Shown here: one piece after another, positions 38,577-63,671 of the stretch
Position numbering within the stretch: position 1 is the stretch's first letter
Layout of the letters: each line of letters opens with the position of its first letter
Assembly (NCBI GenBank): GCA_000434675.1
Contig: HF988646.1
Coordinates: 9,712-73,711 of the forward strand
DNA from: Faecalibacterium sp. CAG:1138
Lineage (GTDB): Bacteria > Bacillota > Clostridia > Christensenellales > CAG-917
Direction of reading: 5' to 3'
DNA: 64,000 nucleotides
Program-made: the position numbers and the translations under genes
Notes under the pieces: generated by a model
What the model saw: only the letters and a program-made list of their open reading frames with translations
What the model was told of the DNA's origin: nothing
The model's database searches: none

Positions 38577-40271
38577 ATGAAAGTTTCCGACGTTCTCACC
38601 GTCGAAATCGTCGACAGCGGAATGGAAGGCGAGGGCATAGCCAAGGTTGACGGCTACGTTCTTTTCGTTCCTATGGCGCTGAAGGGCGAAACGGTGCAAA
38701 TAAGAATAGACCACCTAAAAAAGAATTTCGGCTACGCAACGCTGAAAAAAGTTGAGATTCCGTCCGACAAAAGGGTTCGGCCGGCGTGTCCCGTTTACGG
38801 CGTTTGCGGCGGATGCGACATGCAGCACGTTGCCTACGACGAGCAAAAGGAGCAAAAGCGCAGGCAAATCGAAACTTGTCTGAGGAAAAACGCCGGCATC
38901 GAATTTTCGGTTCCGGAGGTTTACGGCGGATCAAATCGGTTCGCCTACCGCAACAAGCTTCAGATGCCGTTCGGACAAAAGGACGGCAAAGCCGTGCTGG
39001 GCTTTTTCAAGGAAGGGACGCATACGGTCGTTCCGACCGCGCGATGCGTTTTGCACGGCAAGTGGGCAGAAGATCTGATGAAAGCCGTTTTGTCGTGGGC
39101 AAACGAAAACAAGGTTTCCGTTTACGACGAAAGGTCCCAAAAGGGGATTCTCAGACATCTCGTGGCCCGAAACGTAGGCGGCCAAACGGTGATCGTCATC
39201 GTCGGAAACGGCAACAAACTGCCTGCTGCGGACAATCTTATCTCCGCCCTAAAAAGCGTTTTCGGCGACGGCTTCAAGCTCTATTTTTCTCCTAACCGCA
39301 AAAACACCAACGTCATTCTGGGCGAAAGCGTGACGGAAATTTACGGCAAAAACGTCAAAGCAAACGTCGGAGGAGTCAGGGTGGACGTAAGCCCTTACAC
39401 TTTTTTGCAGGTGAACGACGAAGTGCGCGATACGATATATTCGGCCGTAGCGGCCGAGGTGGAAAACGGCGTTGACGTCGTCATCGACGCCTACTCCGGC
39501 ATGGGCATAATGACCGCGCTTCTGTCCTCGAAAGCGAAGGAAGTTTACGGCGTCGAAATCGTTCCCGAGGCAGTTTCGGACGCCGACAAACTGATGGCCG
39601 AAAACGGCATCAAAAACGTCAAAAACATCGCGGGCGACGCCGCAGAAGTGCTGCCGAAGCTTGCAAAAAGCCTCTCGGAAACGAAAGCGGATTACGTTTA
39701 TCATTTGGCACAATCGCCATTTGAAGCAATAAAAAGCGGCCGAAAAACCTTTGAATTGCGTCTTTACGACGAAAAACGCCGCAGTCTTAAAGTCGGCGAC
39801 GTCATCGAATTCTACACGGACGGCACCGACGAGAGGCTACTGAAAAAAGTCAAAAATCTTTTCGTATTCGACGATTTTTCCGCGCTTTTCAAAACGCTCG
39901 GCACGGGTGAAAACACCTGCGGCGCCGTTATGACCGAGGACGCAGCCATTTTAGGTATGGGCAAGTATTATTCCGAGGAACGCCAACAGAGAAACAAAGT
40001 CGTCGCCATAGAGCTTGCGCCCGCAGAAAAATCAATAACCGTCGTTTTGGATCCGCCACGGAAGGGTTGCGATCAAAAGACGCTTGCCGCGGTAAAGGAA
40101 GCCCGCCCCGAAAAGGTTATATACGTCAGCTGCAATCCCGCAACTCTTGCCCGCGACCTTGCGCTTTTGAAAACCGATTTCGATCTCGTTTCCGTCAGAG
40201 CCTACGACATGTTCCCTCAAACCAAGCACGTCGAAACCCTCGCCGTCCTTACGAAAAAAGGTAATACATGA
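38577..40271 (+). CDS. rlmD: TRAM/RumA-type 23S rRNA (uracil-C5)-methyltransferase with an inserted ASCH-like domain
   Basis: TRAM N-terminus, 4Fe-4S cysteines CPVYGVCGGCDMQH, SAM motif IDAYSGMGI, DPPRKG, and catalytic VSCNPATLARD. A ~115-aa SPFEAIKSGRKTFELRLYDEKRRSLKVGDVIEF segment is inserted before DPPRKG. Confidence 0.85.
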   Translation: MKVSDVLTVEIVDSGMEGEGIAKVDGYVLFVPMALKGETVQIRIDHLKKNFGYATLKKVEIPSDKRVRPACPVYGVCGGCDMQHVAYDEQKEQKRRQIETCLRKNAGIEFSVPEVYGGSNRFAYRNKLQMPFGQKDGKAVLGFFKEGTHTVVPTARCVLHGKWAEDLMKAVLSWANENKVSVYDERSQKGILRHLVARNVGGQTVIVIVGNGNKLPAADNLISALKSVFGDGFKLYFSPNRKNTNVILGESVTEIYGKNVKANVGGVRVDVSPYTFLQVNDEVRDTIYSAVAAEVENGVDVVIDAYSGMGIMTALLSSKAKEVYGVEIVPEAVSDADKLMAENGIKNVKNIAGDAAEVLPKLAKSLSETKADYVYHLAQSPFEAIKSGRKTFELRLYDEKRRSLKVGDVIEFYTDGTDERLLKKVKNLFVFDDFSALFKTLGTGENTCGAVMTEDAAILGMGKYYSEERQQRNKVVAIELAPAEKSITVVLDPPRKGCDQKTLAAVKEARPEKVIYVSCNPATLARDLALLKTDFDLVSVRAYDMFPQTKHVETLAVLTKKGNT

Positions 40272-41009: not shown

Positions 41010-41057
41010 CCACAACATATTGTGTCTCGCAAAAAAAGTGCATACAATATGATGTAT
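41010..41057. promoter_or_regulatory. Two NrdR-box-like palindromes upstream of nrdD
   Basis: CCACAACATATTGTGT (41010-41025) and ATACAATATGATGTAT (41042-41057). The centres are 32 bp apart, and both resemble the acaCwAtATaTwGtgt consensus. Confidence 0.6.
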
Positions 41058-41062
41058 TTCGA

Positions 41063-41091
41063 TTGACATTGAACGGGGCGTTTGCTATAAT
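41063..41091 (+). promoter_or_regulatory. Sigma-A type promoter for nrdD
   Basis: TTGACA, a 17-nt spacer, then TATAAT, immediately downstream of the NrdR boxes. Confidence 0.6.
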
Positions 41092-41126
41092 CAAAAACGT
41101 ACATTTCACAAAAGGAGGAAGCAACA

Positions 41127-43511
41127 ATGCTTCAAGTTAAAAAAAGGGATAACAACGTAGTACCGTTTGATCTTTCCAAGATCGAAAACGCCATTGAAAA
41201 GGCGTTTATTGCCGTTGGCAAATGCTACACCAAGGATATTATCGAGCTTTTAAGTCTGAAGGTTACCGCGGCGGTTTCCGACAAAGTGTCGGACGGAGTG
41301 GTTTCCGTCGAAGACGTGCAGGACAGCGTCGAAGTGGTGCTCATTCAGGCCAGCTACGTGGACGTTGCGAAAGCGTACATTCTGTATCGTAAGAATCACG
41401 AAAAAATGCGCAACATGTCCTCCACCGTGCTTGACTACAAGGCCACGGTCGGCAACTATCTTAAAATCAACGACTGGCGCGTGAAGGAGAACTCCACCGT
41501 TACCTATTCTGTCGGCGGACTTATCCTTTCCAACAGCGGCGCGATCACCGCCAACTACTGGCTTTCCGAAATCTACGACGAAGAAATCGAAAAGGCTCAT
41601 CGCAACGCGGATATCCATATCCACGACCTCAGCATGCTCACGGGTTATTGTGCCGGTTGGTCCTTGAAACAGCTTATTATGGAAGGTCTGGGCGGCGTGC
41701 CGGGCAAAATCACCAGCTCTCCTGCCGGCCACCTCAGCACTCTCTGCAATCAGATGGTCAACTTCCTCGGCATCATGCAGAACGAATGGGCAGGCGCGCA
41801 GGCGTTCAGCTCCTTCGACACCTATCTTGCGCCGTTCGTCAAGGTTGACAACCTCTCCTACAAAGAGGTCAAGCAGTGCATCCAGAGCTTCATTTACGGT
41901 GTAAACACTCCGTCCAGATGGGGCACGCAGGCGCCGTTCACCAACATCACTTTGGACTGGGTAGTTCCAAACGATTTGGCCGAGCTTAACGCCATTGTCG
42001 GCGGCAAAGAACTTGATTTCAAGTACAAGGATTGCCAAAAAGAAATGGCCATGGTCAACAAGGCGTTCATCGAAATTATGATCGAAGGCGACGCCAACGG
42101 CCGCGGCTTCCAGTATCCTATCCCGACCTATTCCATCACCAGGGATTTCGACTGGTCAGAAACCGAAAACAACAAACTTCTCTTCGAAATGACCGCAAAA
42201 TACGGCACCCCGTATTTCAGCAATTACATCAACAGCGATATGGAGCCGTCGGACGTCAGGTCCATGTGCTGCAGATTGCGTCTGGATCTTAGGGAACTGA
42301 GGAAAAAATCGGGCGGCTTCTTCGGAAGCGGCGAAAGCACGGGTTCCGTGGGCGTCGTAACCATAAATATGCCGAGGATCGCGTATCTTTCCAAGGACGA
42401 AAACGAATTTTTCGAGCGCCTTGAAAAGCTGATGAATTTGTCCGCAAGAAGCCTGAAAATCAAACGTAACGTCATTTCCAAGCTTTTGGAAGAAGGCTTG
42501 TATCCGTACACCAAACGTTATCTCGGCACCTTCAACAATCACTTTTCCACCATCGGCCTTGTGGGCATGAACGAAGCGTGCCTCAACGCAAAATGGCTGG
42601 GCGTCGATCTCACGCACAAAGAAGCGCAGGAATTCACCAAAAAGACGCTCAACTTCATGCGTAACAAGCTCAGCGACTATCAGGAAGAGTACGGCGACCT
42701 CTACAACCTCGAGGCCACCCCTGCCGAAAGCACTTCCTACCGTCTGGCGAAACACGACAGAAAGTACTATCCGGACATCATCACCGCCACCAACAGTAAG
42801 GATCAGGCTCCGTACTACACCAACAGCTCGCACCTGCCTGTAGGCTACACCGCAGACATCTTCGAGGCCCTGGACATTCAGGACGAACTTCAGACTCTCT
42901 ACACCTCCGGCACCGTTTTCCATGCGTTCTTGGGGCAAAAGCTCTCCGACTGGAAAGCCGCGGCAAACCTGGTCAGGAAGATTGCCGAAAACTACAAGCT
43001 TCCTTATTACACCATGAGCCCTACCTATTCCGTATGTCAGGAACACGGTTATCTCGAAGGCGAAGTTTACAAATGCCCGAAATGCGGCCGCACCACCGAG
43101 GTTTACAGCCGTATCACCGGCTACTATCGTCCGGTTCAGAACTGGAACGACGGCAAGCTTGAAGAGTTCCACGCCAGAAAGACCTACGACATCGCCAACA
43201 GCCACCTCAAATCCGAGTGCCGCGTAAAGGCGGAAGACGTCAAAAAACCGGAAAAAGCGCAAGTTAAAGAGCTTCTGCTTTTCACCACCAAAACTTGCCC
43301 TAACTGCAAGATGGCCAAAGCAATGCTTCAAAAAGCAGGAATAACCTACACGTCCGTCGACGCGCAGGACGAAAAGGAAGTAACGTTGAGCTACGGCGTC
43401 AAAAAGGCTCCGACGCTGCTCGTTCCTAACGGCGACGGCTTCGACGTCTACGACAACGCCAGCGAAATCAAAAAATTCATCGAAAAACAAGGAGCGACCG
43501 TAAATGCATGA
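41127..43511 (+). CDS. nrdD: Anaerobic (class III) ribonucleoside-triphosphate reductase with a C-terminal glutaredoxin/NrdH-like domain
   Basis: ATP-cone N-terminus, zinc ribbon CPKCG, and glycyl-radical motif SRITGYYRPV. An extra ~100 aa ends in a thioredoxin-fold segment LLLFTTKTCPNCKMAKAMLQKAGITYTSVD (CPNC at 43296-43307). Confidence 0.9.
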   Translation: MLQVKKRDNNVVPFDLSKIENAIEKAFIAVGKCYTKDIIELLSLKVTAAVSDKVSDGVVSVEDVQDSVEVVLIQASYVDVAKAYILYRKNHEKMRNMSSTVLDYKATVGNYLKINDWRVKENSTVTYSVGGLILSNSGAITANYWLSEIYDEEIEKAHRNADIHIHDLSMLTGYCAGWSLKQLIMEGLGGVPGKITSSPAGHLSTLCNQMVNFLGIMQNEWAGAQAFSSFDTYLAPFVKVDNLSYKEVKQCIQSFIYGVNTPSRWGTQAPFTNITLDWVVPNDLAELNAIVGGKELDFKYKDCQKEMAMVNKAFIEIMIEGDANGRGFQYPIPTYSITRDFDWSETENNKLLFEMTAKYGTPYFSNYINSDMEPSDVRSMCCRLRLDLRELRKKSGGFFGSGESTGSVGVVTINMPRIAYLSKDENEFFERLEKLMNLSARSLKIKRNVISKLLEEGLYPYTKRYLGTFNNHFSTIGLVGMNEACLNAKWLGVDLTHKEAQEFTKKTLNFMRNKLSDYQEEYGDLYNLEATPAESTSYRLAKHDRKYYPDIITATNSKDQAPYYTNSSHLPVGYTADIFEALDIQDELQTLYTSGTVFHAFLGQKLSDWKAAANLVRKIAENYKLPYYTMSPTYSVCQEHGYLEGEVYKCPKCGRTTEVYSRITGYYRPVQNWNDGKLEEFHARKTYDIANSHLKSECRVKAEDVKKPEKAQVKELLLFTTKTCPNCKMAKAMLQKAGITYTSVDAQDEKEVTLSYGVKKAPTLLVPNGDGFDVYDNASEIKKFIEKQGATVNA

Positions 43512-44445
43512 CGTCATAGTTATCGGCGCAGGCGTGGCAGGCATGACTGCCGCGCTCAACGTCCTCAGGGGCGGGAAAAGCGTTTTGGTTTTGGAATCCG
43601 AAAGCTTCGGCGGGCAGGTAAGCTTTTCGCCGAGGGTGGAGAACGTACCTTCCATAAAACAAATTTCCGGTTCGGAATTTGCCGACAATCTTTTTGAACA
43701 GATCACCGACCTCGGCGCCGACGTAGAGCTGGAAAAGGTGCTTAAAGTGGAAAAACAGGAAGATAAAACCTTCGTTGTGACAACCGACTACGGCACCCAC
43801 ACCGCAAAAGCCGTCATCTTGGCAACCGGCGTGAAGCATCGTCACATCGGGGTAGAGAGGGAACTCGACCTCGTCGGGCACGGCGTAAGCTATTGCGCTG
43901 TTTGCGACGGAGCGTTTTACGAGGGCGAAGAAGTGGCGCTCATCGGCGACGCAAACCCCGCTCTTCAGTACAGCCTTCTTCTTTCCAACTATTGCAAAAA
44001 GGTTTATGTTCTGACTCTGTTCGACAAGTTCTTTGCGGACAAAATTCTGGTGGACAGGCTTCGTGAGCGCGACAACGTCGAAATTCATCACAACCTCTCT
44101 TTGCAGGAGTTTTTGGGCGAAGAGGAGCTCACCGGCATACGCCTTAAAAACACCAAGGACGGCACGGACTTTATGGTTCGTTGCAAAGGTTGCTTCATCT
44201 GCATAGGGCAGGTACCGGACAACAAGGCGTTTGAAAACATAGTGGATTTGGACAGGGCAGGCTACATCGTTTCCGACGAAAGCTGCACCACCAAAACCGA
44301 CGGCGTGTTCGTTGCGGGCGACTGCCGCACCAAAAAAATGCGTCAGATCACCACTGCCGCGGCCGACGGCGCAACGGCGGGGGTTTTTGTGCCCGACGGC
44401 GCAACGGCGGCGTTTCTGGCCAATGGCTACATCGACACTTTGTAA
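43504..44445 (+). CDS. Thioredoxin-reductase-like flavoprotein lacking canonical NADPH motifs
   Basis: FAD motif VIVIGAGVAGMTAA and redox-active CAVCDG are present. The second dinucleotide motif reads LIGDANPALQ instead of GGGNSA, and HRRDxxRA is replaced by TLFDKFFAD. Overlaps the nrdD stop by 8 nt. Confidence 0.8.
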   Translation: MHDVIVIGAGVAGMTAALNVLRGGKSVLVLESESFGGQVSFSPRVENVPSIKQISGSEFADNLFEQITDLGADVELEKVLKVEKQEDKTFVVTTDYGTHTAKAVILATGVKHRHIGVERELDLVGHGVSYCAVCDGAFYEGEEVALIGDANPALQYSLLLSNYCKKVYVLTLFDKFFADKILVDRLRERDNVEIHHNLSLQEFLGEEELTGIRLKNTKDGTDFMVRCKGCFICIGQVPDNKAFENIVDLDRAGYIVSDESCTTKTDGVFVAGDCRTKKMRQITTAAADGATAGVFVPDGATAAFLANGYIDTL

Positions 44446-44453
44446 AAGTATAA

Positions 44454-44480
44454 GTCAGACAGCGTTTTGCTGTCTGATTT
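44454..44480 (+). terminator. Intrinsic terminator after the TrxR-like gene
   Basis: Hairpin TCAGACAGCGTTTTGCTGTCTGA followed by TTTT. Confidence 0.7.
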
Positions 44481-44567: not shown

Positions 44568-45434
44568 ATGAAGTGCTGGCTTGTTGTAAACGGCTTTTTG
44601 AATTCCAAAAAGTTTGAAGAAATATACGGTTTTTTATGCCGCAGCGGCAAAAAACTGGGCATAGACGTTGAGGTGAAAACGGGCGCCGATATTTTTTGCG
44701 GCGTAAACGAAGGCTTTTCGTCGTTTTCGCTTCCCGATTTCGTGCTTTTCTGGGACAAGGACGCGTACACCGCAAAGCGACTGGAAGAGGCGGGTTTACG
44801 CCTTTTCAATTCGGCCGCAAGCGTTGAGCTTTGCGACAACAAGTGCCTGACGGCTATGGCGCTTCGCGGCAAAGTGAAAACGCCCGAAACCTTTATAGCT
44901 CCGAAAACCTTCGAGGGCGTCGGCTTTAGCAATCTGACTTTTTTGGATAAAGCCGCCAAAAAGCTCGGCTATCCGATGGTTGTGAAGGAAGCGTACGGCT
45001 CGTTCGGCAAACAGGTTTATCTCGTCCGAAACCGCGCCGAGGCGGAAACGCTGGTGAAGAGCTTTGGCGCAAAGGATTTTCTGATGCAAAAGTTCGTCGA
45101 AACCAGCTGCGGCCGCGACGTAAGGATAAACGTCGTAGGGGAAAAGGTGGTTTCCGCGATGTATCGCCACAACGAAAACGATTTCCGCTCCAACGTAACA
45201 AACGGCGGCAAGGCCGAAAACTACCTGCCGACCGAGGAGCAAAAGACTGCGGCCATTGCCGCGGCAAAGGCTCTGGGGCTTGACTTTTGCGGCGTGGACG
45301 TGCTTTTCGGCGAGGGCGGCGAACCCGTGATTGCGGAGGTCAATTCCAACCCGCATTTCAAGTCCACGTTCGACTGCACGGGCATAGATATGAGCGAGCA
45401 GATTCTGTCTTACGTCAAGGAGCAACTAAAGTGA
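44568..45434 (+). CDS. RimK-family ATP-grasp ligase
   Basis: 288 aa with an ATP-grasp core (PMVVKEAYGSFGKQVYLV, RINVVG, FRSNVTNGG, CGVDVLF...EVNSNP). Confidence 0.8.
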   Translation: MKCWLVVNGFLNSKKFEEIYGFLCRSGKKLGIDVEVKTGADIFCGVNEGFSSFSLPDFVLFWDKDAYTAKRLEEAGLRLFNSAASVELCDNKCLTAMALRGKVKTPETFIAPKTFEGVGFSNLTFLDKAAKKLGYPMVVKEAYGSFGKQVYLVRNRAEAETLVKSFGAKDFLMQKFVETSCGRDVRINVVGEKVVSAMYRHNENDFRSNVTNGGKAENYLPTEEQKTAAIAAAKALGLDFCGVDVLFGEGGEPVIAEVNSNPHFKSTFDCTGIDMSEQILSYVKEQLK

Positions 45435-46225
45435 AAGGACTTTTGATATACGACGCCGTGGGTTTTGCGCGCAATTCCTGGTTTGCCAAAAGACTTGAAC
45501 AAGCCTGCAAAAAACAGGGTTTAGATTTAAATTTGTGCGTTTTAACGTCCGAAACAGTGCATTTGCCGCTTGTTCCCGATTTCGCGGCAGTGCGGGTGGC
45601 AAACCCCGCTCTTACTAAAAAACTTGAGGACGCAGGCGTCAGAACCTTCAACAATTATAAAACCTCTTTCGTCGCCAACGACAAGTGGAAGACCTATCTT
45701 TTCTTGAAGGAAAACGGTTTTCGCGTTATGGAAACAGAGGAGGGTTTTTCCGAAAAATTGCCGTTCCCGTACGTTTTGAAAAGCGTGGACGGCCACGGCG
45801 GAAGCGAAGTGTTTCTCGTCAAAACGAAAGAGGAGAAAAACAAGCTTAAGGCGGAATATTCTTCGGGCAGACGGTTTGTGAGTCAAAAGCTTTGCTCAAG
45901 CCCCGGCCGCGACCTCAGGGTTTACGTTTTGGGCGGCAAGGTGCTTGCCGGCGCGATGAGAAGTTCTGCTTCCGATTTTCGGAGCAACTATTCTTTGGGC
46001 GGCACGGCCGAAATCGTTCAGGTTCCGCAAAATATCGCATTCTCTGCCGAGCGGATAGCCGCCAAGCTTCAAAGCGATTTCGTGGGCGTCGATTTTATAT
46101 TTGACGGCGACGATGCCGTAGTCAACGAAGTTGAGGACGTAGTCGGCACCCGAATGCTTTACGCCCTTACCGACCTTGACGCCGCGGAAGAATACGCAAA
46201 ATATATTGCCAAAAATCTGAAATAG
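45431..46225 (+). CDS. RimK-family ATP-grasp ligase, second divergent paralog
   Basis: The GTG start overlaps the upstream stop (GTGA). PYVLKSVDGHGGSEVFLV, RVYVLGG, FRSNYSLGG, VGVDFIF...EVED. Confidence 0.75.
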   Translation: MKGLLIYDAVGFARNSWFAKRLEQACKKQGLDLNLCVLTSETVHLPLVPDFAAVRVANPALTKKLEDAGVRTFNNYKTSFVANDKWKTYLFLKENGFRVMETEEGFSEKLPFPYVLKSVDGHGGSEVFLVKTKEEKNKLKAEYSSGRRFVSQKLCSSPGRDLRVYVLGGKVLAGAMRSSASDFRSNYSLGGTAEIVQVPQNIAFSAERIAAKLQSDFVGVDFIFDGDDAVVNEVEDVVGTRMLYALTDLDAAEEYAKYIAKNLK

Positions 46226-46242: not shown

Positions 46243-46326
46243 ATGAAACGCTGCATTGCATTTGCCGATGCAGCCGCAAAATCCGAAGTGATGGGACCTA
46301 CCGAAACTTTGCTTTTTGGAAAATAG
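46243..46326 (+). CDS. 27-codon ORF with a strong SD, directly after the ATP-grasp pair
   Basis: TAAGGAGAAATATG, encoding MKRCIAFADAAAKSEVMGPTETLLFGK. Coding status is unproven. Confidence 0.25.
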   Translation: MKRCIAFADAAAKSEVMGPTETLLFGK

Positions 46327-46478
46327 CTCCCACAAAACGGCCGACAACCTCAAAACATTGCAAACGATGTTCATCGTTTCCACAAGTTTGCTGTCACTTT
46401 TCGTCATTGCGCTTGCCGTAGTTCTCATCGTCCGGAAACGCCGCGGTCATCTCGCCGCCTAACCCAACCAACCCAAAA

Positions 46479-46505
46479 AGCGAACCCTCCGGTTCGCTTT
46501 TTTAT
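46479..46505 (+). terminator. Intrinsic terminator marking the end of core DNA
   Basis: AGCGAACCCTCCGGTTCGCT followed by a T-run. Base composition changes visibly right after it. Confidence 0.7.
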
Positions 46506-46652
46506 TTTGTCTTTGTTTTGTTTCAAGTCCGTTGCCTACAAAAAAAGACAATGCTGTCGCATTGTCTTTATTTTGTAAACAAACAACAAAAAGGAGCGTC
46601 TTTTTATGCCGAAAAGGGGGCAGGCGTCCACGGGGAATTGAACTTGAATATG

Positions 46653-46681
46653 TTGATTTTTGACGAATAATTTGGTATAAT
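46653..46681 (+). promoter_or_regulatory. Sigma-A type promoter for the Abi2/NTase pair
   Basis: TTGATT, a 17-nt spacer, then TATAAT. Confidence 0.5.
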
Positions 46682-46708
46682 AATAAAAAATGCGAAGAGG
46701 TAAAAATA

Positions 46709-47485
46709 TTGTTTAACGATTTAGATTTCAAAAAAATATTTCCTCTAATGACTTTTGAAAGCGGCGAAGAAGAAACGTGCAGAAAGTATATGGAAACGAG
46801 AGGAATATATCTTTATAAGCAAGTTTATGATGCGTTAGCTACTTGGATGCCTAATGTTAAAGAAATCAAATATAAACAATTTTCAAATTTGATTCGATAC
46901 GATAAGGGAATAAGGGATAAACTATATATTTATCTTGCTGCGGCGGAAGAATATCTGCGCAATATTATATTTGAAGAATTAGAAATAGATAATCGTCCCC
47001 AAGACAGTACTAAAATTAAACTTAATATTAGTGATTTAAGGACAAGAACTGTAGAGGAGCGAAATGAAGAATCGAATTTATATTATTACTCTTACGCAAA
47101 GAATTTTGATTTTGGACTGATTGAGAAAGTCTTTCAAAAGTTCAAACTTGCCGAAAAGTATGGCTTGATTCAATCGGATATTAAAGAAGTTCGGAAATTA
47201 TTGAGAAACAAAGTAATGCATCATAGCATGTTACTGTTATCTTGTTTTACGGATCGACAAGACATAGAAAAAGAAATAAAAACACTTGAAAAAGGCGTAG
47301 AAGCGTTGTATAGATTATTGCCAACATTAGAGCTTCGTGAAGGTTCGTCAGTTGATGGTCGCATTAGCGGCGGTTTAACGCAGGCAATTAACAAAAGCAA
47401 TTATCCTGATGGAGATATTATGAAAAAGCCGTATGATAACATAATTTGTTTACACAAGTTCAAAGACGGGAGATTTATATTATAA
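46709..47485 (+). CDS. Abi2 (AbiD/AbiF)-like HEPN-domain protein
   Basis: LIRYDKGIRDKLYIYLAAAEEYLRNIIF and the Rx4H motif RNKVMH (47204-47221) match the Abi_2/HEPN pattern. TTG start with an AGAGGT SD; ATG 46748 is an alternative start. Confidence 0.65.
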   Translation: MFNDLDFKKIFPLMTFESGEEETCRKYMETRGIYLYKQVYDALATWMPNVKEIKYKQFSNLIRYDKGIRDKLYIYLAAAEEYLRNIIFEELEIDNRPQDSTKIKLNISDLRTRTVEERNEESNLYYYSYAKNFDFGLIEKVFQKFKLAEKYGLIQSDIKEVRKLLRNKVMHHSMLLLSCFTDRQDIEKEIKTLEKGVEALYRLLPTLELREGSSVDGRISGGLTQAINKSNYPDGDIMKKPYDNIICLHKFKDGRFIL

Positions 47486-48144
47486 TGGAATATTTACATA
47501 GGAAAGACAAAAAGAAAACTTCAGCGCGAGAAGATTTTGAGAAAAGATTATTGCCGAAAGTGAGAGAATATTTGCGGAAAGATTTCGGTAAAAAGAAATG
47601 GGTGTTTAATGAATCCCTTGTCGGTAGTACAAAACGCAATTTAGTCTTGGTTGGGAACGAAGGCTTTGATATGGATTACCAATTACGGTTCGATTGTATT
47701 CCAGATAAATACTTAAAAGATGCCAAAGCTATGAAAGAATTGTTTCGAAATTATTTAAATAAAGCAAAGAAAGAACTCGGAATAGCCTTGACAGATTGCG
47801 AAGATTCTACACATGTGCTTACGATGAAGAAAATAGTTAATACAAAAGTTGATTATTCGTATGATATAGCAATTTTACGATTAAATGAATGCGGACAATA
47901 TGTAATTTTGAAGAATGAAAAGCAAGGCAGACAAGATGATTATCATTATGTACCGTTACCTGATTGTGGAGATTTTAACGAACGGTATAAAAAAGTGAAA
48001 ACTCAAGAAGCGTGGGCGTTGTTACGTGATAAATATAAAGTTAAAAAAGGAAAATATCAATACACAAATCAAGATGATAGACCTGCTTCATTTTCATTAC
48101 TGGGACAGGCGGTAAATGAAGTTATACAGAAATTAGAACTGTGA
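47485..48144 (+). CDS. Minimal Pol-beta-superfamily nucleotidyltransferase (MNT-like)
   Basis: G-S (47623-47628), 13 residues, then D-M-D (47668-47676), with a later YSYDIAIL strand carrying the third Asp. The ATG overlaps the upstream TAA (TAATG). Confidence 0.6.
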   Translation: MEYLHRKDKKKTSAREDFEKRLLPKVREYLRKDFGKKKWVFNESLVGSTKRNLVLVGNEGFDMDYQLRFDCIPDKYLKDAKAMKELFRNYLNKAKKELGIALTDCEDSTHVLTMKKIVNTKVDYSYDIAILRLNECGQYVILKNEKQGRQDDYHYVPLPDCGDFNERYKKVKTQEAWALLRDKYKVKKGKYQYTNQDDRPASFSLLGQAVNEVIQKLEL

Positions 48145-48235
48145 GAAGTTAAACAAAGGAGATTATCGTGCAAAAATCCTTTTTGTGCAATCGTTAAAGG
48201 CTTGCGACTTTTCAAAGCGAGTGAAGAACAAATCC

Positions 48236-49891
48236 CTACGGCGATGAGCGAAGAAACGACAAAAAGGGTAAACTGCCATAAAAACGGCAATTTACCCCTG
48301 TTTTGCATAGAAAAAGACACACGCGTCGGAGTTTTATACGCTCCTTTTGCGTGTGTCTTGATGGTGCCGTGTGGCATAATTTGTACGAACCTGTGTTAGA
48401 AGAAATAGCGGTTTTATCCGCCGTTTCTATTTCGCTTTCCGTTTTTGTGACGTGTTCTTTTGTTAATTTCAAGTGTTCGGGGCAGTCTGTAAAGTTGTAT
48501 GTAATCACTATCTCATCGTCATAAAGTATTACTTCCCGTATAAACGCATTAACAATTAGTTTCCGCACTTTTATATCGTCCGTGTTATCAAACACAAATT
48601 TACTCAAATACATTTCTATATCGTCCGCAGTTAAGTATGTGTAACTGCGGGCTTTTTCTTTAAGGATTTCCACGTCGTATTGCGATATTAGATTTTCAAG
48701 TTCGGTCAGACGGCTTTTCGTCGTTTCGGTGATTATGCCTTGCTCGATTGCCTTTACGATATTATTCTGTGCCTTTACCGCCTCGGCGCGTTTCTTTTCA
48801 ATAAATTTCAAAGCCGTGTTGTCTGCGGTTTCTTTTTTATGTACGTTGTATATGCTTTGCGCAATCTTCTTGATATTGTTCACGCTCGATAACATTTGAG
48901 TCGTTGCGTTTATCACCGTATCTTCGATAAACTGTTTTTGCACTCTGCCCATATTACATTTAGCACGCTTGCGACGTTTTGAAAGGCAAATATAGTAGTA
49001 ATGAATTGCACCCGTATGAGAAGTTCCGCTTTCACCGCCCATTCTGTGCTTACAATCTCCGCATATAAGTTTTCCCGAAAGGATATAGTCGAAAATCTCT
49101 TTTTTACGGCTCGGCGCAAGTTTGTTTTCTTCGTTTATTGCATTTACCTTGTTCCAAAGTTCGTCGGATATAATCCTCGGAAAGATGTTATCGTATGATT
49201 CCCCTTGGTGTTCGACAACGCCGGTATATCTCTTGTTGTGCAGAATGAAATACAAGTATTTGTGGTCTACGAGTTTTCCGTTCTTTCTGCGACAACCGCA
49301 TTCCTTGAATTTATCCGCAATGGCAACTGCTTTGTAGCCCTGCGAATACATCAAAAACGCATCTTCCACGATTTTGCTTTCGTATTCGTTCACAACGTAT
49401 TTTTTGTCAACGACGTCATAGCCGAAAATGTCTTGTCCACCCGTGGCTTTGCCTTTGCGCCAACTCTCTTTCAGTCCGCGATTGACTTTTTGCGTAAGTT
49501 CTTCCGAAAAGTATTGATTAAAACCTTCCAAAACGGTTTCCATCATACGACCTTCGGGGCTGTCCGTAAGGTTTTCCATTGCAGAGAGAATTGTTACGCC
49601 GTTATCTCGGAGCGTCTTCTTGTGTATTATCGATTCAAACTTGTTACGAGAAAATCGATCAAGTTTGTAAACGATAAGGTACTGCCACTCTTTGCGGCTG
49701 CTGTCTTTCAGCATTTTTTGAAATGCGACACGGTTGTCGTTCGTTCCCGTCATAGCGCGGTCGATATAGGTATCGACTATGAGTATATCGTTGTTTTGAG
49801 CATACTCTCGACACACACGAAGTTGTCCTTCAATAGATTGTTCGGTTTGGCTATCGCTAGAATAACGGGCATAAATAATTGCTTTTTTCAT
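48236..49891 (-). CDS. Large serine recombinase
   Basis: Resolvase domain AIIYARYSSDSQ...YKLDRFSRN, followed by recombinase and zinc-ribbon regions (CGDCKHRM...C). The last ~40 codons lie beyond a terminator-like hairpin, so the 3' end is uncertain. Confidence 0.9.
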   Translation of the reverse strand: MKKAIIYARYSSDSQTEQSIEGQLRVCREYAQNNDILIVDTYIDRAMTGTNDNRVAFQKMLKDSSRKEWQYLIVYKLDRFSRNKFESIIHKKTLRDNGVTILSAMENLTDSPEGRMMETVLEGFNQYFSEELTQKVNRGLKESWRKGKATGGQDIFGYDVVDKKYVVNEYESKIVEDAFLMYSQGYKAVAIADKFKECGCRRKNGKLVDHKYLYFILHNKRYTGVVEHQGESYDNIFPRIISDELWNKVNAINEENKLAPSRKKEIFDYILSGKLICGDCKHRMGGESGTSHTGAIHYYYICLSKRRKRAKCNMGRVQKQFIEDTVINATTQMLSSVNNIKKIAQSIYNVHKKETADNTALKFIEKKRAEAVKAQNNIVKAIEQGIITETTKSRLTELENLISQYDVEILKEKARSYTYLTADDIEMYLSKFVFDNTDDIKVRKLIVNAFIREVILYDDEIVITYNFTDCPEHLKLTKEHVTKTESEIETADKTAISSNTGSYKLCHTAPSRHTQKERIKLRRVCLFLCKTGVNCRFYGSLPFLSFLRSSP

Positions 49892-50150
49892 TTTGGTTAT
49901 TAACTCCTTTTAATTTTTTTGTCTTTCGACGGAAACCGAACAATCCGATTTTGGCGAACACAGCAAGGAAACAGTAAAAAATATAGGGAAATTTTTTGTG
50001 TCTTTATAGTTCTCACTATATTTTTTACCCTTGCGGTGGCTCGATTTGTGTTTGCATACATAAAAGTTTTCAGACCGAAATCGGATAGGCTTTCCGCGAG
50101 AAAGAAAAAACGTCTTGTTTCTTCCTTGTCCACAAGACTACAAGCCAAAG

Positions 50151-50167
50151 TCGCAAGTTTTTTGCGA
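50151..50167. promoter_or_regulatory. Palindromic operator-like site TCGCAA-N5-TTGCGA (copy 1)
   Basis: Exact 6-bp inverted arms with a 5-bp spacer, followed by GTTCGA. Confidence 0.5.
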
Positions 50168-50211
50168 GTTCGACTGAAATTTTCCAAAAAAATGAAAAAA
50201 ATTATTCAAAG

Positions 50212-50228
50212 TCGCAAGAAAGTTGCGA
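50212..50228. promoter_or_regulatory. Palindromic operator-like site TCGCAA-N5-TTGCGA (copy 2)
   Basis: Same arms and spacing, 61 bp after copy 1, followed by GTTTGA. Confidence 0.5.
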
Positions 50229-50267
50229 GTTTGACCGCTATCCTTTGGGCAAAAAGGAGAAACGGCT

Positions 50268-50456
50268 ATGAACAAGCAATATAAAATAACCACAATCGGC
50301 ACTCCGAACATTGAAAAGATGTCAACGGCGGAACAAAAATCGTTTTACAGCACTCTACTGTCTTTAATGACGGAATACTTCCGCAATGATGCCGAAGCAA
50401 AAAGCACAAACGCCCCCGACTGCTCCGAAAATGCAAACGACATAAACTCGGGGTAA
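50268..50456 (+). CDS. Small hypothetical protein (62 aa) of the island
   Basis: AAAGGAGA SD 7 nt upstream of the ATG. No recognisable domain. Confidence 0.4.
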   Translation: MNKQYKITTIGTPNIEKMSTAEQKSFYSTLLSLMTEYFRNDAEAKSTNAPDCSENANDINSG

Positions 50457-50632
50457 AATGAAAGTCCACGCACGGCGGAGAAAAAGGCGAAAGATCGCCA
50501 AGCGGGTTAGCGGCGACTTCGCCTTCCGCCCGTGCTTTCATTGTCCGATTTAGGTTTGTTTGTTCGGACAGAGGCGTGGCTTGTCTTCGGCGAGGCGCAG
50601 CCGAGCCGACTTGTATCAAGACAAACCACGCC
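50457..50632. ncRNA. Candidate structured RNA or DNA element: three consecutive GC-rich hairpins (family unknown)
   Basis: Hairpin 1 spans 50457-50542 with nested stems AATGAAAG/CTTTCATT, GCACGGCGGA/TCCGCCCGTGC, AGGCGAA/TTCGCCT and TCGCC/GGCGA. Hairpin 2 is TGTCCGA/TCGGACA (50542-50570). Hairpin 3 is GGCGTGGCTTGTCTT/AAGACAAACCACGCC (50573-50632). The strand is unresolved. Confidence 0.35.
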
Positions 50633-50644
50633 TAATTGCCAACG

Positions 50645-50661
50645 TCGCAAAAACCTTGCGA
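50645..50661. promoter_or_regulatory. Palindromic operator-like site TCGCAA-N5-TTGCGA (copy 3)
   Basis: Same arms and spacing, 47 bp upstream of the integrase ATG. Confidence 0.5.
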
Positions 50662-50707
50662 GTTTGAAAATTTGAAAAATCAATTAAAAATCATAGGAGA
50701 ATAAAAA

Positions 50708-51634
50708 ATGAAATATATAGAATGGCTGAATATTTGGCTTAACAATTACATAAAGCCAAGCGCAAAAGGACGCACATACATTCGTTATGAGCAACTAATA
50801 CGAACCCACATTGCCCCGAAAATCGGTGGTAACGACATAAACGACCTTACGCCTATCGTTTTGCAATCGTTTGTTACGGAATTATTGAATAGCGGTAATC
50901 TGAAAACCGGCAAAGAGTTATCGGCAAACTTTGTAAATATGGTCATATCTGTTATTCAGAACTCATTGAAAACGGCGCATTTAGTAGGTATCGCAAACGA
51001 ATATGTGGCAAACAAAATAAAACGCCCCAAGACAAAGGAAAAGCAAGTCGAATGTTTTTCCTGCCAGGAGCAGAAGAAAATTGAAAATTATGTATTGAAT
51101 AATGGCAAAGATAAATTATTCGGTGTTGTTTTATGCCTTTACACGGGTTTACGCATCGGCGAACTGCTCGCTTTAACGTGGGGCGATATTGATTTCGGCA
51201 ATGGTTTGCTTTTCGTTTCAAAAACGTGCCACGACGGAAACGACGGTATAAATCATATCCGCATCATCGACAGCCCGAAAACCGTTCATTCCCGCAGGGT
51301 AATACCGTTGCCGAAACAAATATTGTCCTTGCTTAAAGGCGTAAAAAAGCGTTCCAAATGCGAATATATCATAGCCGATAGCGATAAGCCCGTGTTCGTG
51401 CGCTCGTATCAACGAACTTTTGAACTACTATTGAAAAAACTAAACATTCCACATAAAGGCTTTCACTCCTTACGCCATACGTTCGCTACCCGTGCAATGG
51501 AATGTGGAATGGACGTTAAAACTCTTTCGGAACTGTTAGGACATAAAAATGCAACGATTACGCTTAACCGATATGCTCATTCCTTGCTTGAACACAAGGT
51601 AGATATGATGAATAGATTAGGAAAGTTGTTATAA
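50708..51634 (+). CDS. Tyrosine-type site-specific recombinase/integrase
   Basis: SAM-like N-terminal domain plus the catalytic residues: R in GLRIGELLAL, HSLRHTFAT, and Y in LNRYAH. Confidence 0.9.
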   Translation: MKYIEWLNIWLNNYIKPSAKGRTYIRYEQLIRTHIAPKIGGNDINDLTPIVLQSFVTELLNSGNLKTGKELSANFVNMVISVIQNSLKTAHLVGIANEYVANKIKRPKTKEKQVECFSCQEQKKIENYVLNNGKDKLFGVVLCLYTGLRIGELLALTWGDIDFGNGLLFVSKTCHDGNDGINHIRIIDSPKTVHSRRVIPLPKQILSLLKGVKKRSKCEYIIADSDKPVFVRSYQRTFELLLKKLNIPHKGFHSLRHTFATRAMECGMDVKTLSELLGHKNATITLNRYAHSLLEHKVDMMNRLGKLL

Positions 51635-51643
51635 ATCATAAAC

Positions 51644-51841
51644 AAAAAGTGTGCATCAAACAAAATAATTGATGCACACTTTTTAATTATTATAGCAAAT
51701 TTTTCTGCAAAAATCAAGGCGTATTGACTGCTTGTGCATGAATTGTTGTGATATTGCCGTTTTTTTTGATGCACGTTCAAGCCAAATGCGTACACGGAAT
51801 ATTTTGATTGATGCACTATCAGTGGCTGAAAAGTGCATCAA
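51644..51841. repeat. Five copies of a TTGATGCAC motif in both orientations between the integrase gene and the downstream operon
   Basis: GTGCATCAA at 51651-51659 and 51833-51841. TTGATGCAC at 51669-51677, 51766-51774 and 51808-51816. The first pair also forms the integrase terminator hairpin (51644-51684). Confidence 0.6.
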
Positions 51842-51935
51842 AAACAATGCGGCATTTAGTTTTTTATTTTAATTGCCTTCTATGTTTTATCGCTTAAACA
51901 GCCATGCTTTACTACTTTTGGCAAAGGATGAAGCA

Positions 51936-52934
51936 ATGAAGGTAGACTTCTCGAAGATAGAAATAAATTCCAAATATATCTATGCGTTGGATTCTCGGGT
52001 ACTGAAAATTCTTCTCAAAGATAAAACGACCAAGAAAAATATCATTTGGGCTACCGATGAATATTCAAATTTCGGTATTGGATATTCTGCTGATGACGAA
52101 ATTTATCCTACAGATATCGAAGGTATCACATCAATTATTACTCCGCGAGTGGCAAAAAGCAAAGAATCTCAAACGACGCGTATCCGCGGTATGGCAGAAG
52201 TTTTTACTCCGTCTTGGGTTTGCAATAAGCAAAACAACCTAATCGATTGCGCATGGTTCGGCAGAAACGACGTATTCAATGCAGAAATAGCAAACGGATG
52301 GCAAACGATTGACGCGAAAATCGACTTCCCCGATGCAAAAGGCAAATCGTGGCAGGATTACGTTAAGGCAAATCGCCTTGAAATTTCTTGCGGCGAAGCC
52401 CCTTATCTTACAAGCCGATACGACGCCGTTTCCGGCGAGATGATTCCCGTAAAAAACAGAATCGGATTTTTAGACAGAAAGTTGCGTGTTGTGTCCGAAA
52501 ACGCAGACTCCGAAAAGGAATGGTATTCATGGGCAAAAAAGGCTGTTCAGAGCGTTTACGGGTACGATTTGCAGGGCGACAACGTTTTGCTTGCCAGAGA
52601 AAATTTATTATTTACGTTTATCGAGCATTACGAAGATAAGTTTGACGTTCCCCCGATACCGGAATACTTAATCGAAATCGCAAAGATTTTGGCTTGGAAC
52701 ATTTTTCAGATGGACGGTATCAAATTTGTTGTTCCGGGCAGTTGCCGAAATAAAACCGTTAAAACCGAAACGCTGTTCGGCGTTGAAACCACTGAAGAAC
52801 GGTGTATCGGCTGCCGAACGAACGATAACGGAAAGCACAACGGCATTTATTGCAGAACTTACGATTGGGCTGCAAACGAATCCGTAGAGTTTTATTCGAG
52901 TTTTATAAGGGGGAAGCAAAATGGCAAAGTATGA
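51936..52934 (+). CDS. Methyltransferase-fold protein with a degenerate SAM loop and no NPPY motif (332 aa)
   Basis: Motif X-like AEVFTP (52194-52211) is present. LEISCGEAPYL (52377-52409) sits where LEPxCGxGxFL is expected. YGYDLQGDNVLLARENL is motif II-like. The C-terminus has a CIGC...H...C cluster. Start chosen at ATG 51936 (AAGGA SD). Confidence 0.6.
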   Translation: MKVDFSKIEINSKYIYALDSRVLKILLKDKTTKKNIIWATDEYSNFGIGYSADDEIYPTDIEGITSIITPRVAKSKESQTTRIRGMAEVFTPSWVCNKQNNLIDCAWFGRNDVFNAEIANGWQTIDAKIDFPDAKGKSWQDYVKANRLEISCGEAPYLTSRYDAVSGEMIPVKNRIGFLDRKLRVVSENADSEKEWYSWAKKAVQSVYGYDLQGDNVLLARENLLFTFIEHYEDKFDVPPIPEYLIEIAKILAWNIFQMDGIKFVVPGSCRNKTVKTETLFGVETTEERCIGCRTNDNGKHNGIYCRTYDWAANESVEFYSSFIRGKQNGKV

Positions 52935-56904: not shown

Positions 56905-56933
56905 TTATACAGACACCACACTTCTAAAGCATA

Positions 56934-56962
56934 TTGACTTGTAATCTTTATTGTTGTATAAT
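56934..56962 (+). promoter_or_regulatory. Consensus sigma-A promoter for the OLD/PARIS-like gene
   Basis: TTGACT, a 17-nt spacer, then TATAAT. Confidence 0.65.
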
Positions 56963-56985
56963 TATACTAAACAATGGGGAGATAA

Positions 56986-58725: not shown

Positions 58726-58782
58726 TCAACTATGTATAAAAATAGGCGGATAGATTTTCAAATTTATCCGTCTGTTTTATTG

Positions 58783-59406
58783 TTAAAAGCGATTTGTTGC
58801 AAGCAAATATTTTTTACGAATACTGTTTTGTCTGCGCCAGATTGTAGTGCGGTTGACGTTTAATATTCTGCCGATTTGTAGCATTGTAAACCCTGCCATA
58901 AGAATGGAAAGCGTTTCGTATTCAGCGGCGGTGAGTTTCATCTTTGATATAAGCCCGTCAACGGCTATATAATCGTTTTTCTGCTCGTCATCGAGTATTG
59001 TTTCAGACTCACTCGTAATTCGCTCGTCAAGGCTTATTGTGTTTGCCATATAGCGTGTGTATTGCTTTTGCAAATAATTATCGGCGCAACGATAACAAGC
59101 ACTTTTAATTGTAACAACCTTTCCGTATTTCGTAGTATAGTTATCACCGAGTTTCTCACCTATATGTTGGCAAAGAAACAGCATTGCCTCTTGCGCAATG
59201 TCGTATGCGTTTGAAAACGGCGAATAATCGTCTTTTGAGCGATTCATATCTCTAAATAGCCCTTTGTATAGATAATGCAAATCCTTGCCTGAACGGACGA
59301 TTACTGTTTTAATACAGGTCAAGGCGATAACTTCGCCCATTTTCTGTACGTTTTCTGCCGAGATAACCATATCGTTATCCAAAATGCCTTTGTTTACTTC
59401 TTTCAT
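58783..59406 (-). CDS. Sigma-70 region-4/LuxR-type HTH regulator typical of integrative elements
   Basis: C-terminal LTAAEYETLSILMAGFTMLQIGRILNVNRTTIWRRQNSIRKK. GGAGG SD. Confidence 0.6.
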   Translation of the reverse strand: MKEVNKGILDNDMVISAENVQKMGEVIALTCIKTVIVRSGKDLHYLYKGLFRDMNRSKDDYSPFSNAYDIAQEAMLFLCQHIGEKLGDNYTTKYGKVVTIKSACYRCADNYLQKQYTRYMANTISLDERITSESETILDDEQKNDYIAVDGLISKMKLTAAEYETLSILMAGFTMLQIGRILNVNRTTIWRRQNSIRKKYLLATNRF

Positions 59407-59772
59407 TGTATTTTACCTCCGATTTAATTCGCCTTTCGGCAAAAACGGAAGTAGCACCGGGGAAAGATAGAAGTTTTTTACCTTATAGTTGGTTAGACGG
59501 AAGTCAACGAACAGCAAAAAATATTACGTTATAATCGACAATTTCAAAGTTTTCGGTAAAAATTTTTGCCGTTGACTTGCGCTTTTCACTGTGCTACAAA
59601 CGTAAACGAAAGGCGATAAATCGGACGGCAAAACGGTATAGAAAAACCGAGCGTTTAGAACACTCGGTTAAAGGTTGTAATGTATTTATAGTTTGATTTT
59701 AAGTCCGAAATAATCTCTTGTAAAAAACAAAACGAACTCAAGATTTTTTCTCGGGTTCGTTTTATTCTTGTT

Positions 59773-59859: not shown

Positions 59860-59874
59860 TTAAACTGTTACCGA

Positions 59875-60971: not shown

Positions 60972-61011
60972 CGAAAAACAAACTTTAACAAAAATTTTTG
61001 AGAGGTGAACT

Positions 61012-63668: not shown

Positions 63669-63671
63669 CTT

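Follow-up and report, generated by a model that had tools for sequence, protein, structure and literature searches.

The DNA analysed here, a stretch of 64,000 nucleotides from contig HF988646.1 of Faecalibacterium sp. CAG:1138 (the window, to which all positions refer), contains an NrdR-controlled two-gene operon that probably encodes a thiol-dependent class III ribonucleotide reductase (RNR) together with its own reducing system, namely a redoxin tethered to the C-terminus of the NrdD polypeptide and an NrdD-dedicated reductase that is independent of NADPH. Strict anaerobes cannot synthesise DNA without class III RNRs, whose re-reduction is the least settled part of their chemistry. Three routes are known so far, through formate, thioredoxin or an NrdH-like redoxin, and class III RNRs that depend on thioredoxin have been on record since 2014.

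The first gene of the operon encodes a protein whose catalytic core (aa 121-687) is that of a class III RNR, matching the Pfam family NRDD (PF13597; E 4e-194, 646.8 bits) and passing two NrdD equivalog models (NF006126, 1136 bits with a cut-off of 548; TIGR02487, 535 bits with a cut-off of 326). The core follows an ATP-cone and contains a glycyl-radical motif of the RxxGY type preceded by a Cys-rich zinc ribbon (Table 1), both of which are class III features; C637, H640, C650 and C653 of the ribbon presumably bind zinc, as in the family at large. Judged from its alignment to the Thermotoga maritima enzyme, the active site is of the thiol type, combining a double Cys with a Glu. Conservation of NrdD residues is given throughout as counts in an alignment of 83 related NrdDs, and that of reductase residues as counts among 71 NrdD-linked homologues. 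The redoxin-dependent NrdD2 type is defined by a third Cys and an active-site Glu (E495 in T. maritima, E438 in Neisseria bacilliformis), the formate-only NrdD1 type lacks both the extra Cys and the Glu, and NrdD3 has the extra Cys without the Glu (PMC4493059). The Glu is the proposed proton donor of formate-independent NrdDs (PMC9669993), and the literature associates this C/CC/E pattern with turnover that relies on a redoxin (PMC4493059, PMC9669993). The window enzyme has both NrdD2 features, with C381-C382 at the positions of T. maritima C329-C330 and E529 at that of E495. It shares only the Met of the loop with NrdD1, which has a single-Cys MGCR loop and no Glu, and it departs from NrdD3, in which the double Cys comes with neither Met nor Glu (QCCR/A), by possessing both M380 and E529. 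A formate-type active site, which the earlier note on this DNA had named as grounds for abandoning its proposal of a thiol-reduced enzyme, was not encountered; C175, MCCR and E529 form the thiol pattern.

Beyond the glycyl-radical motif, the polypeptide continues into a C-terminal domain that is predicted to be a thioredoxin-fold CxxC redoxin of glutaredoxin/NrdH size. Residues 712-785 match the Pfam families Glutaredoxin (PF00462; 31.6 bits, cut-off 22.9) and Thioredoxin (PF00085; 26.9 bits, cut-off 23.5). Modelled alone with AlphaFold from 110 homologous sequences, the domain reaches a predicted local distance difference test score (pLDDT) of 84, with a core above 90, and adopts a beta-alpha-beta-alpha-beta-beta-alpha order in which the CPNC motif (aa 724-727) opens the first helix (aa 725-736) and P762 stands just before the third strand (aa 763-767). 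A Foldseek comparison of the model with the PDB retrieved thioredoxins, the a domains of protein disulfide isomerases, NrdH (4fiw; TM-score 0.71, normalised to the target) and an 86-residue chain of a Bacillus subtilis RNR complex entry. CPNC is present in 82 of the 83 relatives, and the Ala-Pro-Thr before the third strand is invariant. Pfam, AlphaFold and Foldseek agree with the earlier note that NrdD extends past its glycyl-radical motif into a thioredoxin fold with CPNC. The label "glutaredoxin/NrdH-like", also proposed there, holds for the redoxin fold, the Glutaredoxin match and the resemblance to 4fiw, but not for membership of the NrdH family: the domain scores 18.1 bits against TIGR02194 (cut-off 85.75) and its active site is CPNC rather than of the CVQC type. 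It matches no equivalog at all, the best score being 29 bits for the YruB family (TIGR02196; cut-off 88.55). The adjoining thioredoxin reductase (TrxR)-type gene argues for reduction of the redoxin by that reductase rather than by glutathione.

Core and redoxin are joined by a Lys/Glu-rich linker of about 25 residues, which is predicted to be flexible and whose length and sequence differ strongly among the 83 relatives; residues 668-710 have a pLDDT below 50 in the full-length AlphaFold model. In many fused NrdDs (L004-L083) this otherwise hypervariable linker contains a CxC pair, for example KCECEENK, ACECKKDD or SCDCQQ, recalling the cysteine pairs that act as shuttles in the C-terminal tails of class I and II RNRs. 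The window linker has a single, non-conserved Cys (Cys698).

The second gene encodes a TrxR-like flavoprotein with the same sequence as CCY04740.1, from the human-gut metagenome species Faecalibacterium sp. CAG:1138. The two genes share an 8-nt overlap (ATGCATGA), and a GGAG lies 9 nt upstream of the reductase ATG. With 299.8 bits, the protein remains under the TrxB equivalog cut-off of TIGR01292 (343.45). It has the GxGxxG for FAD and the CxxC of TrxB, whereas GDANPALQ and TLFDKFF occupy the places of GGGxxAxE and HRRDxxR, the motifs for NADPH. The earlier note had described precisely this flavoprotein, overlapping nrdD by 8 nt and carrying the FAD motif, CAVC and the two replaced NADPH motifs, and each element was recovered at its coordinates. 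Near the 3' end of the gene (44363-44392), an imperfect tandem duplication of 30 nt, in frame, lengthens the region of the last helix by 10 aa (313 versus 303 aa). It is absent from L001, a locus of the same species, and the other members listed (14 of the 167-member 90% cluster) all have 303 aa, for which reason we regard it as a strain-specific variant or an assembly artefact.

Upstream of nrdD, the first of two NrdR boxes (CCACAACATATTGTGT) differs from the consensus ACACWATATWTWGTGT at 2 positions, is the sole site of that quality in the window, and recurs in L001 and many relatives. The second (ATACAATATGATGTAT) has 4 mismatches and is weak taken alone; it is identical in L001 and follows the first by 32 bp, the commonest spacing of NrdR boxes upstream of nrdD among relatives. 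Both of the tandem boxes claimed in the earlier note were thereby located. Together with the promoter just downstream of them and the intrinsic terminator behind the reductase gene, which is kept in L001 with loop changes that fit the hairpin, they define a two-gene operon with NrdR-type regulation. L001, which lies on a 927-kb contig, has the same operon.

The spread of this arrangement was assessed in a scan of one genome per species, in which at least 597 loci encode relatives. The best 80 of these were examined; all have a NrdD that is 74-83% identical and runs through the redoxin domain. How often the fusion occurs, a question put in the earlier note, can therefore be answered: it is common, being found in at least 80 species-level genomes, nearly all of them metagenome-assembled genomes (MAGs) of uncultured gut Bacillota from humans and livestock. 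The best 120 protein clusters comprise proteins of 786-850 aa, nearly all of 786-800 aa, with one exception of 950 aa, and nearly all bear a glutaredoxin annotation. A TrxR-like gene lies directly downstream of the fused nrdD in 70 of the 80 loci, and in 43 of 74 measured cases the two genes overlap or are separated by at most 15 nt. Three of the ten exceptions are contigs that end early. The remaining seven continue with unrelated genes (pyrimidine biosynthesis, tRNA synthetase and others), and the idea of an alternative reductase at that place was rejected. Three of the loci without a reductase gene, labelled Lachnospiraceae (L060, L077 and L083; approximately 10400-12800), have genes for a dihydroorotase-like protein, OMP decarboxylase and a phosphoribosyltransferase after the fused nrdD.

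When the open reading frames (ORFs) in these neighbourhoods were clustered all against all, no more than three families turned out to be conserved: NrdD in 83 loci, the TrxR-like protein in 71 and a radical-SAM protein in 63. The last is the activase NrdG (TIGR02495, 201.7 bits, cut-off 131) and is encoded adjacently in about 60 of the 80 loci, so that the module as a whole consists of nrdG, the nrdD-redoxin fusion and the reductase gene. Because the pairing of reductase and fused nrdD is conserved in about 70 of the 80 species, a dedicated thiol relay is well founded, which bears out the self-contained thiol pathway suggested in the earlier note.

MAGs whose labels range from Christensenellaceae, Oscillospiraceae, Lachnospiraceae and Erysipelotrichaceae to Bacteroidaceae or Acidiphilium have NrdD cores that are 74-83% identical, and their redoxin domains share only 44-58% identity. 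Such similarity across families points to very strong constraint on nrdD or to its horizontal transfer, and also to unreliable MAG labels. Two loci with apparently separate nrdD and redoxin genes (L002, approximately 7640-8231; L003, approximately 1400-1681) were rejected as evidence of modularity, as the redoxin lies in another frame after a frameshift in or near the A-rich linker or glycyl-radical region; these frameshifts probably reflect mistakes in sequencing or assembly, or else recent pseudogenisation. The short matches that seemed to stand alone were mostly contig fragments.

Compared with the Escherichia coli and Mycobacterium tuberculosis enzymes, the 71 NrdD-linked reductases form one group, which falls into three classes by cofactor site. 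The HRR class (11 loci) has the canonical GGGxxA and HRRxxFR, the QNL class (26 loci) has GGGNSA and [VI]QNLxxxTGE, and the TLF class (29 loci), to which the window reductase belongs, has G-D-[A/G]-N-x-A and TLFDKFF[A/G]D; both motifs are varied in 5 further loci. The classes correspond approximately to clades in bootstrapped neighbour-joining trees even with the motif columns masked, although these trees have two outgroups only and are not a rigorous phylogeny. A column-by-column contrast places the TLF-specific changes at NADPH contacts and leaves the FAD site and the CxxC unchanged: the middle Gly of GGG is Asp in all 29 members (100%), and the three arginines that bind the 2'-phosphate are L, F and F in 90-100% of them. 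The replacement residues are themselves kept in 29 species, which fall into about 15 representative clusters at 50% identity, and this indicates a selected new state rather than decay. That the window protein is a decaying, non-functional paralogue, as its score under the TrxB cut-off and the 30-nt duplication in this assembly might indicate, is hardly credible given that the FAD motif and the CxxC are kept along with these residues, the reading frame is intact in 167 cluster members and translational coupling to nrdD is maintained.

Within the TrxR family, the window reductase resembles ordinary NADPH reductases far more than ferredoxin-dependent ones. Structures of the former in the PDB score 155-192 bits against the whole protein and 73-86 bits against the disulfide domain alone; the cyanobacterial flavin thioredoxin reductase that depends on ferredoxin (FFTR/DTR; 5j60) scores 112 and 44 bits, and the clostridial FFTRs (6gna, 6gnc and 6gnd) score 86-96 and 21-35 bits, with about 20 fewer residues aligned over the same span. 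The nearest relatives of the TLF reductases are NrdD-linked reductases with intact GGGxxA and HRRxxFR. For this reason the TLF class is best read, on the sequence comparisons, as a further and independent loss of the NADPH site inside an NrdD-dedicated reductase lineage rather than as a member of the FFTR or TRi groups. Membership of the clostridial FFTR family would agree with the loss of both NADPH motifs and with an anaerobic Firmicute host, in which reduced ferredoxin is plentiful (PMC10880999), but it is very unlikely in view of these scores and of the canonical-motif relatives. The comparison with clostridial ferredoxin-dependent reductases drawn in the earlier note accordingly survives as an analogy, since the NADPH motifs are replaced in both, and fails as a statement of kinship.

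FFTR/DTR (PDB 6gna-6gnd, 5j60; PMC8154056, PMC10880999) and the window reductase have in common the low-Mr TrxR fold with FAD and CxxC and the absence of a GxGxxA/HRRxxxR site for NADPH, whereas the window protein is low in similarity to them and comes from the NrdD-linked lineage. In alignment with the E. coli and M. tuberculosis enzymes to the last helix, it also stops where NADPH reductases stop and is without the C-terminal aromatic tail that defines the cyanobacterial FFTR (PMC8154056). TRi of Desulfovibrio vulgaris, another TrxR homologue of an anaerobe, has GEGxxAxN and TQGK at the same motifs, biochemically uses neither NADPH nor NADH, and its electron donor is still unknown (PMC5627308). 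It shares with the window reductase an acidic residue in the pyrophosphate loop (GEG in TRi, GDA/GDG here) and a replacement of HRRD that starts with Thr. However, the TRi-group motifs (TQ/NGK and GEGxxAxN) are not those of the window protein (TLFD and GDAxxAxQ), and TRi is monocistronic and reduces a general thioredoxin, in contrast to a TLFDKFF enzyme operon-coupled to an RNR-tethered redoxin (PMC5627308). What the TLF class shares functionally with FFTR and TRi is thus limited to NADPH being an unlikely donor.

Within this operon, NTP reduction by NrdD would oxidise C175 and one of C381/C382 to a disulfide, with E529 as the proton donor and G665 and NrdG supplying the radical. The CPNC domain, swinging on its disordered linker of about 25 residues, would then reduce the C175-C381/C382 disulfide and would itself be reduced by the CAVC of the co-translated reductase, whose FAD would pass on electrons received from a donor. 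The order, direction and partners of these thiol exchanges are modelled on TrxR-NrdH/Trx-RNR systems and on the N. bacilliformis enzyme. A thiol relay to NrdD is well supported. Redoxin domains are 58% identical within the TLF class and 44% identical to those of the QNL class, with NrdD cores at approximately 81%; this fast divergence in step with the reductase class supports direct interaction of redoxin and reductase. As the NADPH site appears to be dismantled in the TLF class, NADPH is probably not the electron source, and another donor would take its place.

Several observations weigh against this reading, and the first of them concerns formate. The Met of the finger loop is used in formate-linked thiosulfuranyl chemistry, and it persists in most double-Cys NrdDs (83%), which thus seem equipped for formate as well as for thioredoxin (PMC9669993). 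Retention of M380 by the window enzyme leaves formate-dependent turnover possible (cf. PMC9669993), and a replacement of formate, such as the earlier note had suggested in writing of thiols "instead of formate", therefore cannot be concluded. Formate might even be the turnover reductant, acting through an M380/C175 thiosulfuranyl, with redoxin and reductase as auxiliaries that keep the cysteines of the active site or zinc ribbon reduced for activation by NrdG or that carry out repair after exposure to oxidants. The Met in MCCR of 82 of the 83 relatives would suit such a division of labour, as would a report that thioredoxin has an activating effect on class III RNR from E. coli (cited in PMC4390871). 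We nevertheless consider it improbable, as E529 and the second finger-loop Cys are invariant here and absent from formate-only NrdD1 (PMC4493059), and a stoichiometric tethered redoxin with a dedicated, translationally coupled reductase would be a heavy cost for occasional repair.

A second point is that no nrdG was found for CAG:1138 within the 64-kb window, where a tblastn search with two NrdG proteins of relatives gave no match. Among ORFs of at least 90 aa in the window, the radical-SAM motif CxxxCxxC occurs only in one helix-turn-helix (HTH) protein and two non-coding frames; the former, at 60450-60971, was discarded as a candidate nrdG, being of the XRE type. The statement of the earlier note that nrdG is not nearby is correct for the window, but this is a peculiarity of the lineage: nrdG adjoins nrdD in about 60 of the 80 relatives, its absence here is a local rearrangement and not a property of the system, and NrdG would be encoded elsewhere in the genome. 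A few relatives, for example L005, L006 and L036, have a neighbourhood without nrdG as well. A third point is the low confidence of the full-length AlphaFold model (pLDDT 65, with linker and finger loop below 50), which is uninformative on docking of the redoxin and was dropped as a guide to it.

The remaining points bear on the electron donor. The neighbourhood clustering gave no conserved gene for a ferredoxin or flavodoxin, and the window contains no ORF with CxxCxxCxxxCP and no ferredoxin. TLF reductases are acidic (mean isoelectric point 5.0, net charge approximately -11), as acidic as the NADPH class, and have gained no positive charge that would hint at an acidic ferredoxin docking there; an electrostatic signature of that kind was rejected. 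About one third of the TLF class retains GxGxxA (as GDGNxA), which may still allow binding of a dinucleotide such as NADH. For these reasons NADH is a serious alternative. The same thiol relay would in that case be fed by a pyridine-nucleotide enzyme using NADH, or NADPH poorly, through a site without 2'-phosphate recognition, which we regard as unlikely but as the main competitor to a protein donor. Of GxGxxA, the first Gly and the Ala are never lost, the sister QNL class has likewise lost the arginines but has GGGNSA, and the module contains no gene for a protein donor. On the other hand, the TLF reductase lacks an acidic residue at the end of beta-2, such as AhpF and other NADH-specific relatives use. 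NADH-preferring low-Mr reductases are known from T. maritima and D. vulgaris (TR3; PMC5627308), yet an invariant Asp sits inside the pyrophosphate loop of the TLF enzymes, the central Gly has become Ala in two thirds of them, and the comparable GEG/TQGK site of TRi serves neither nucleotide (PMC5627308).

The favoured guess remains a low-potential carrier such as ferredoxin or flavodoxin, in view of the loss of the NADPH site, the precedent of TRi and a flavodoxin gene that follows nrdG in one species. In that species (L084-L089; 2423-7240), nrdD-redoxin, a TLF-class reductase, nrdG and a flavodoxin gene (NF005501, 210.8 bits, cut-off 198) follow each other on one strand, and the flavodoxin is a candidate donor for NrdG, for the reductase or for both; the arrangement was seen in this species only. 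Ferredoxin itself is a reasonable guess to which nothing specific points here. More tentatively than the relay itself, we envisage that the TLF enzymes may be a further, independently evolved lineage of pyridine-nucleotide-independent flavin thioredoxin reductases that feeds solely a class III RNR via its tethered redoxin and is wired to ferredoxin or flavodoxin.

Related systems are known. NrdD2 enzymes of N. bacilliformis and T. maritima (Wei et al. 2014; summarised in PMC4493059 and PMC9669993) share with the window system the glycyl-radical NrdD, the bottom-face Cys, the double-Cys loop and the Glu, and during their turnover a pair of cysteines becomes oxidised and is reduced again by a protein of the thioredoxin type. 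The window system differs in the covalent fusion of the redoxin at the C-terminus, a dedicated reductase gene next in the operon, an MCCR instead of an SCCR loop, and a reductase that is not a standard NADPH enzyme. In Facklamia ignava, a Grx::ATP-cone::NrdB protein likewise provides an RNR polypeptide with a small CxxC redoxin as a built-in reductant (PMC6187632). That case involves a class I enzyme and an N-terminal, glutathione-dependent glutaredoxin, whereas the fusion described here is C-terminal after the glycyl-radical domain, has a TrxR-type partner and occurs in at least 80 species. A survey of glutaredoxin-RNR fusions lists a single Glutaredoxin:NrdD in RefSeq, from Lachnospiraceae bacterium TWA4 (PMC6187632), and several TrxR lineages independent of NAD(P)H are known (PMC5627308, PMC8154056, PMC10880999). 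In the literature searched, we came across neither a redoxin fused to the C-terminus of NrdD beside a linked TrxR paralogue nor reductases of the TLF or QNL class, a prior mention in Wei et al. 2014/2015 being possible. The operon is thus a fused, operon-packaged form of the known redoxin-dependent class III RNR, combined with a variant of the known theme of TrxRs deficient in the NADPH site.

A further parallel is the NrdD3 operon of Methanosarcina barkeri, which reportedly encodes an NrdH-like redoxin and a ferredoxin:disulfide reductase (Wei et al., Biochemistry, 2015). Like it, the window operon is a class III RNR operon with its own redoxin and a putatively non-NADPH disulfide reductase, which may link dNTP synthesis to a low-potential donor. 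NrdD3, however, has neither the Glu nor the Met (QCCR/A), both of which the window enzyme possesses, its redoxin is separate, and its reductase is of the iron-sulfur FTR type and not a flavin TrxR homologue.

The module represents a natural self-contained thiol route, with enzyme, tethered redoxin and dedicated reductase in one operon, and is widespread in abundant uncultured gut Firmicutes. It lends itself to three questions: how a redoxin gains access to the buried site of a glycyl-radical RNR, whether an MCCR enzyme uses both formate and thiols, and which donor replaces NADPH. To our knowledge, several NAD(P)H-independent members of the TrxR family (TRi, the Thermoplasma enzyme) are without a known donor, and three cofactor-site classes on approximately 80% identical NrdD cores offer a controlled comparison of donor switching in this family. 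Should the TLF enzymes prove to be an independent lineage wired to ferredoxin or flavodoxin, DNA-precursor synthesis in hundreds of uncultured gut Bacillota species would be tied to the low-potential pool rather than to NADPH or formate, and the sister classes HRR, QNL and TLF would form a natural series of change in the electron donor of a reductase.

Table 1. Positions of the operon, its predicted functional elements and neighbouring features in the window.
Feature	Position	Strand	Basis and remarks
NrdR box 1	41010-41025	+	2 mismatches to consensus
NrdR box 2 (weak)	41042-41057	+	4 mismatches to consensus; 32 bp after box 1
Sigma-70 promoter (TTGACA, 17 nt, TATAAT; TG before -10)	41063-41091	+	12/12 consensus positions
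nrdD-redoxin fusion gene, 794 aa	41127-43511	+	Pfam NRDD, NCBIfam NF006126; preceded by GGAGG at 41114-41118
ATP-cone, allosteric activity domain, aa 3-92	41133-41402	+	PF03477, E 3e-23
Cys175, bottom-face (beta-A) cysteine (T. maritima NrdD C125)	41649-41651	+	Alignment to PDB 4coi; 83/83 relatives
Finger loop M380-C381-C382-R383 (T. maritima S328-C329-C330-R331)	42264-42275	+	Alignment; MCCR in 82/83 relatives
Glu529, in NLEATPAE (T. maritima E495)	42711-42713	+	Alignment; 83/83 relatives
Zinc-ribbon residues C637, H640, C650, C653 of glycyl-radical domain	43035-43085	+	Cysteines kept in 82/83 relatives
Glycyl-radical motif SRITGYYRPV, aa 661-670 (Gly665 at 43119-43121)	43107-43136	+	Motif search
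Lys/Glu-rich linker, aa 688-713	43188-43265	+	Predicted disorder; hypervariable among relatives
Thioredoxin-fold redoxin domain, aa 714-790 (CPNC, C724-C727, at 43296-43307; cis-Pro loop A761-P762-T763)	43266-43496	+	Pfam, AlphaFold, Foldseek
TrxR-like flavoprotein gene, 313 aa	43504-44445	+	Pyr_redox_2, E 7.5e-41; TIGR01292; 8-nt overlap with nrdD
FAD-binding GxGxxG, G8-A-G-V-A-G13	43525-43542	+	Kept in all 71 NrdD-linked homologues
Redox-active disulfide C131-A-V-C134	43894-43905	+	CxxC kept in all 71 homologues
Degenerate pyrophosphate motif GDANPA, aa 148-153, replacing GGGxxA	43945-43962	+	Aligns to GGGDSA (M. tuberculosis)/GGGNTA
Degenerate 2'-phosphate motif TLFDKFFAD, aa 171-179, replacing HRRDxFRAx	44014-44040	+	Aligns to HRRDEFRAS (M. 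tuberculosis) and to the E. coli reductase
Intrinsic terminator, end of two-gene operon	44452-44480	+	13-bp stem and T run
Eco57I-type methylase/ResIII fusion	52921-56904
AAA_21/AAA_15 ATPase	56986-58725
tRNA-Leu(CAG)	59773-59859	-
ResIII helicase	61476-63668	-

Straight after the operon terminator, the window contains two tandem genes of RimK-family ATP-grasp proteins of the alpha-L-glutamate ligase type (44568-46225). A role in the system, for example in the synthesis of a low-molecular-weight thiol, was dismissed, as a strong terminator lies between, NCBIfam assigns them to alpha-L-glutamate ligases, and such genes are absent beside nrdD in 78 of the 80 other species; RimK-type genes occur near nrdD in no other loci than L001 and L068, in the latter at a different place in the locus. 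From approximately 46300 to 64000, the GC content falls from about 0.50 to 0.33-0.43, and this stretch, which contains the last four features of Table 1 and several ORFs without a Pfam match, looks like a defence or mobile island; L001 has three serine recombinases at the corresponding position. On the other side of the operon, a gene for an RNA uracil-5-methyltransferase-like protein (TRAM and methyltransferase domains; 38577-40271) has an ASCH domain inserted in mid-protein (aa 377-481), and its orthologue in L001 is annotated with 666 aa compared with 564 aa in the window.

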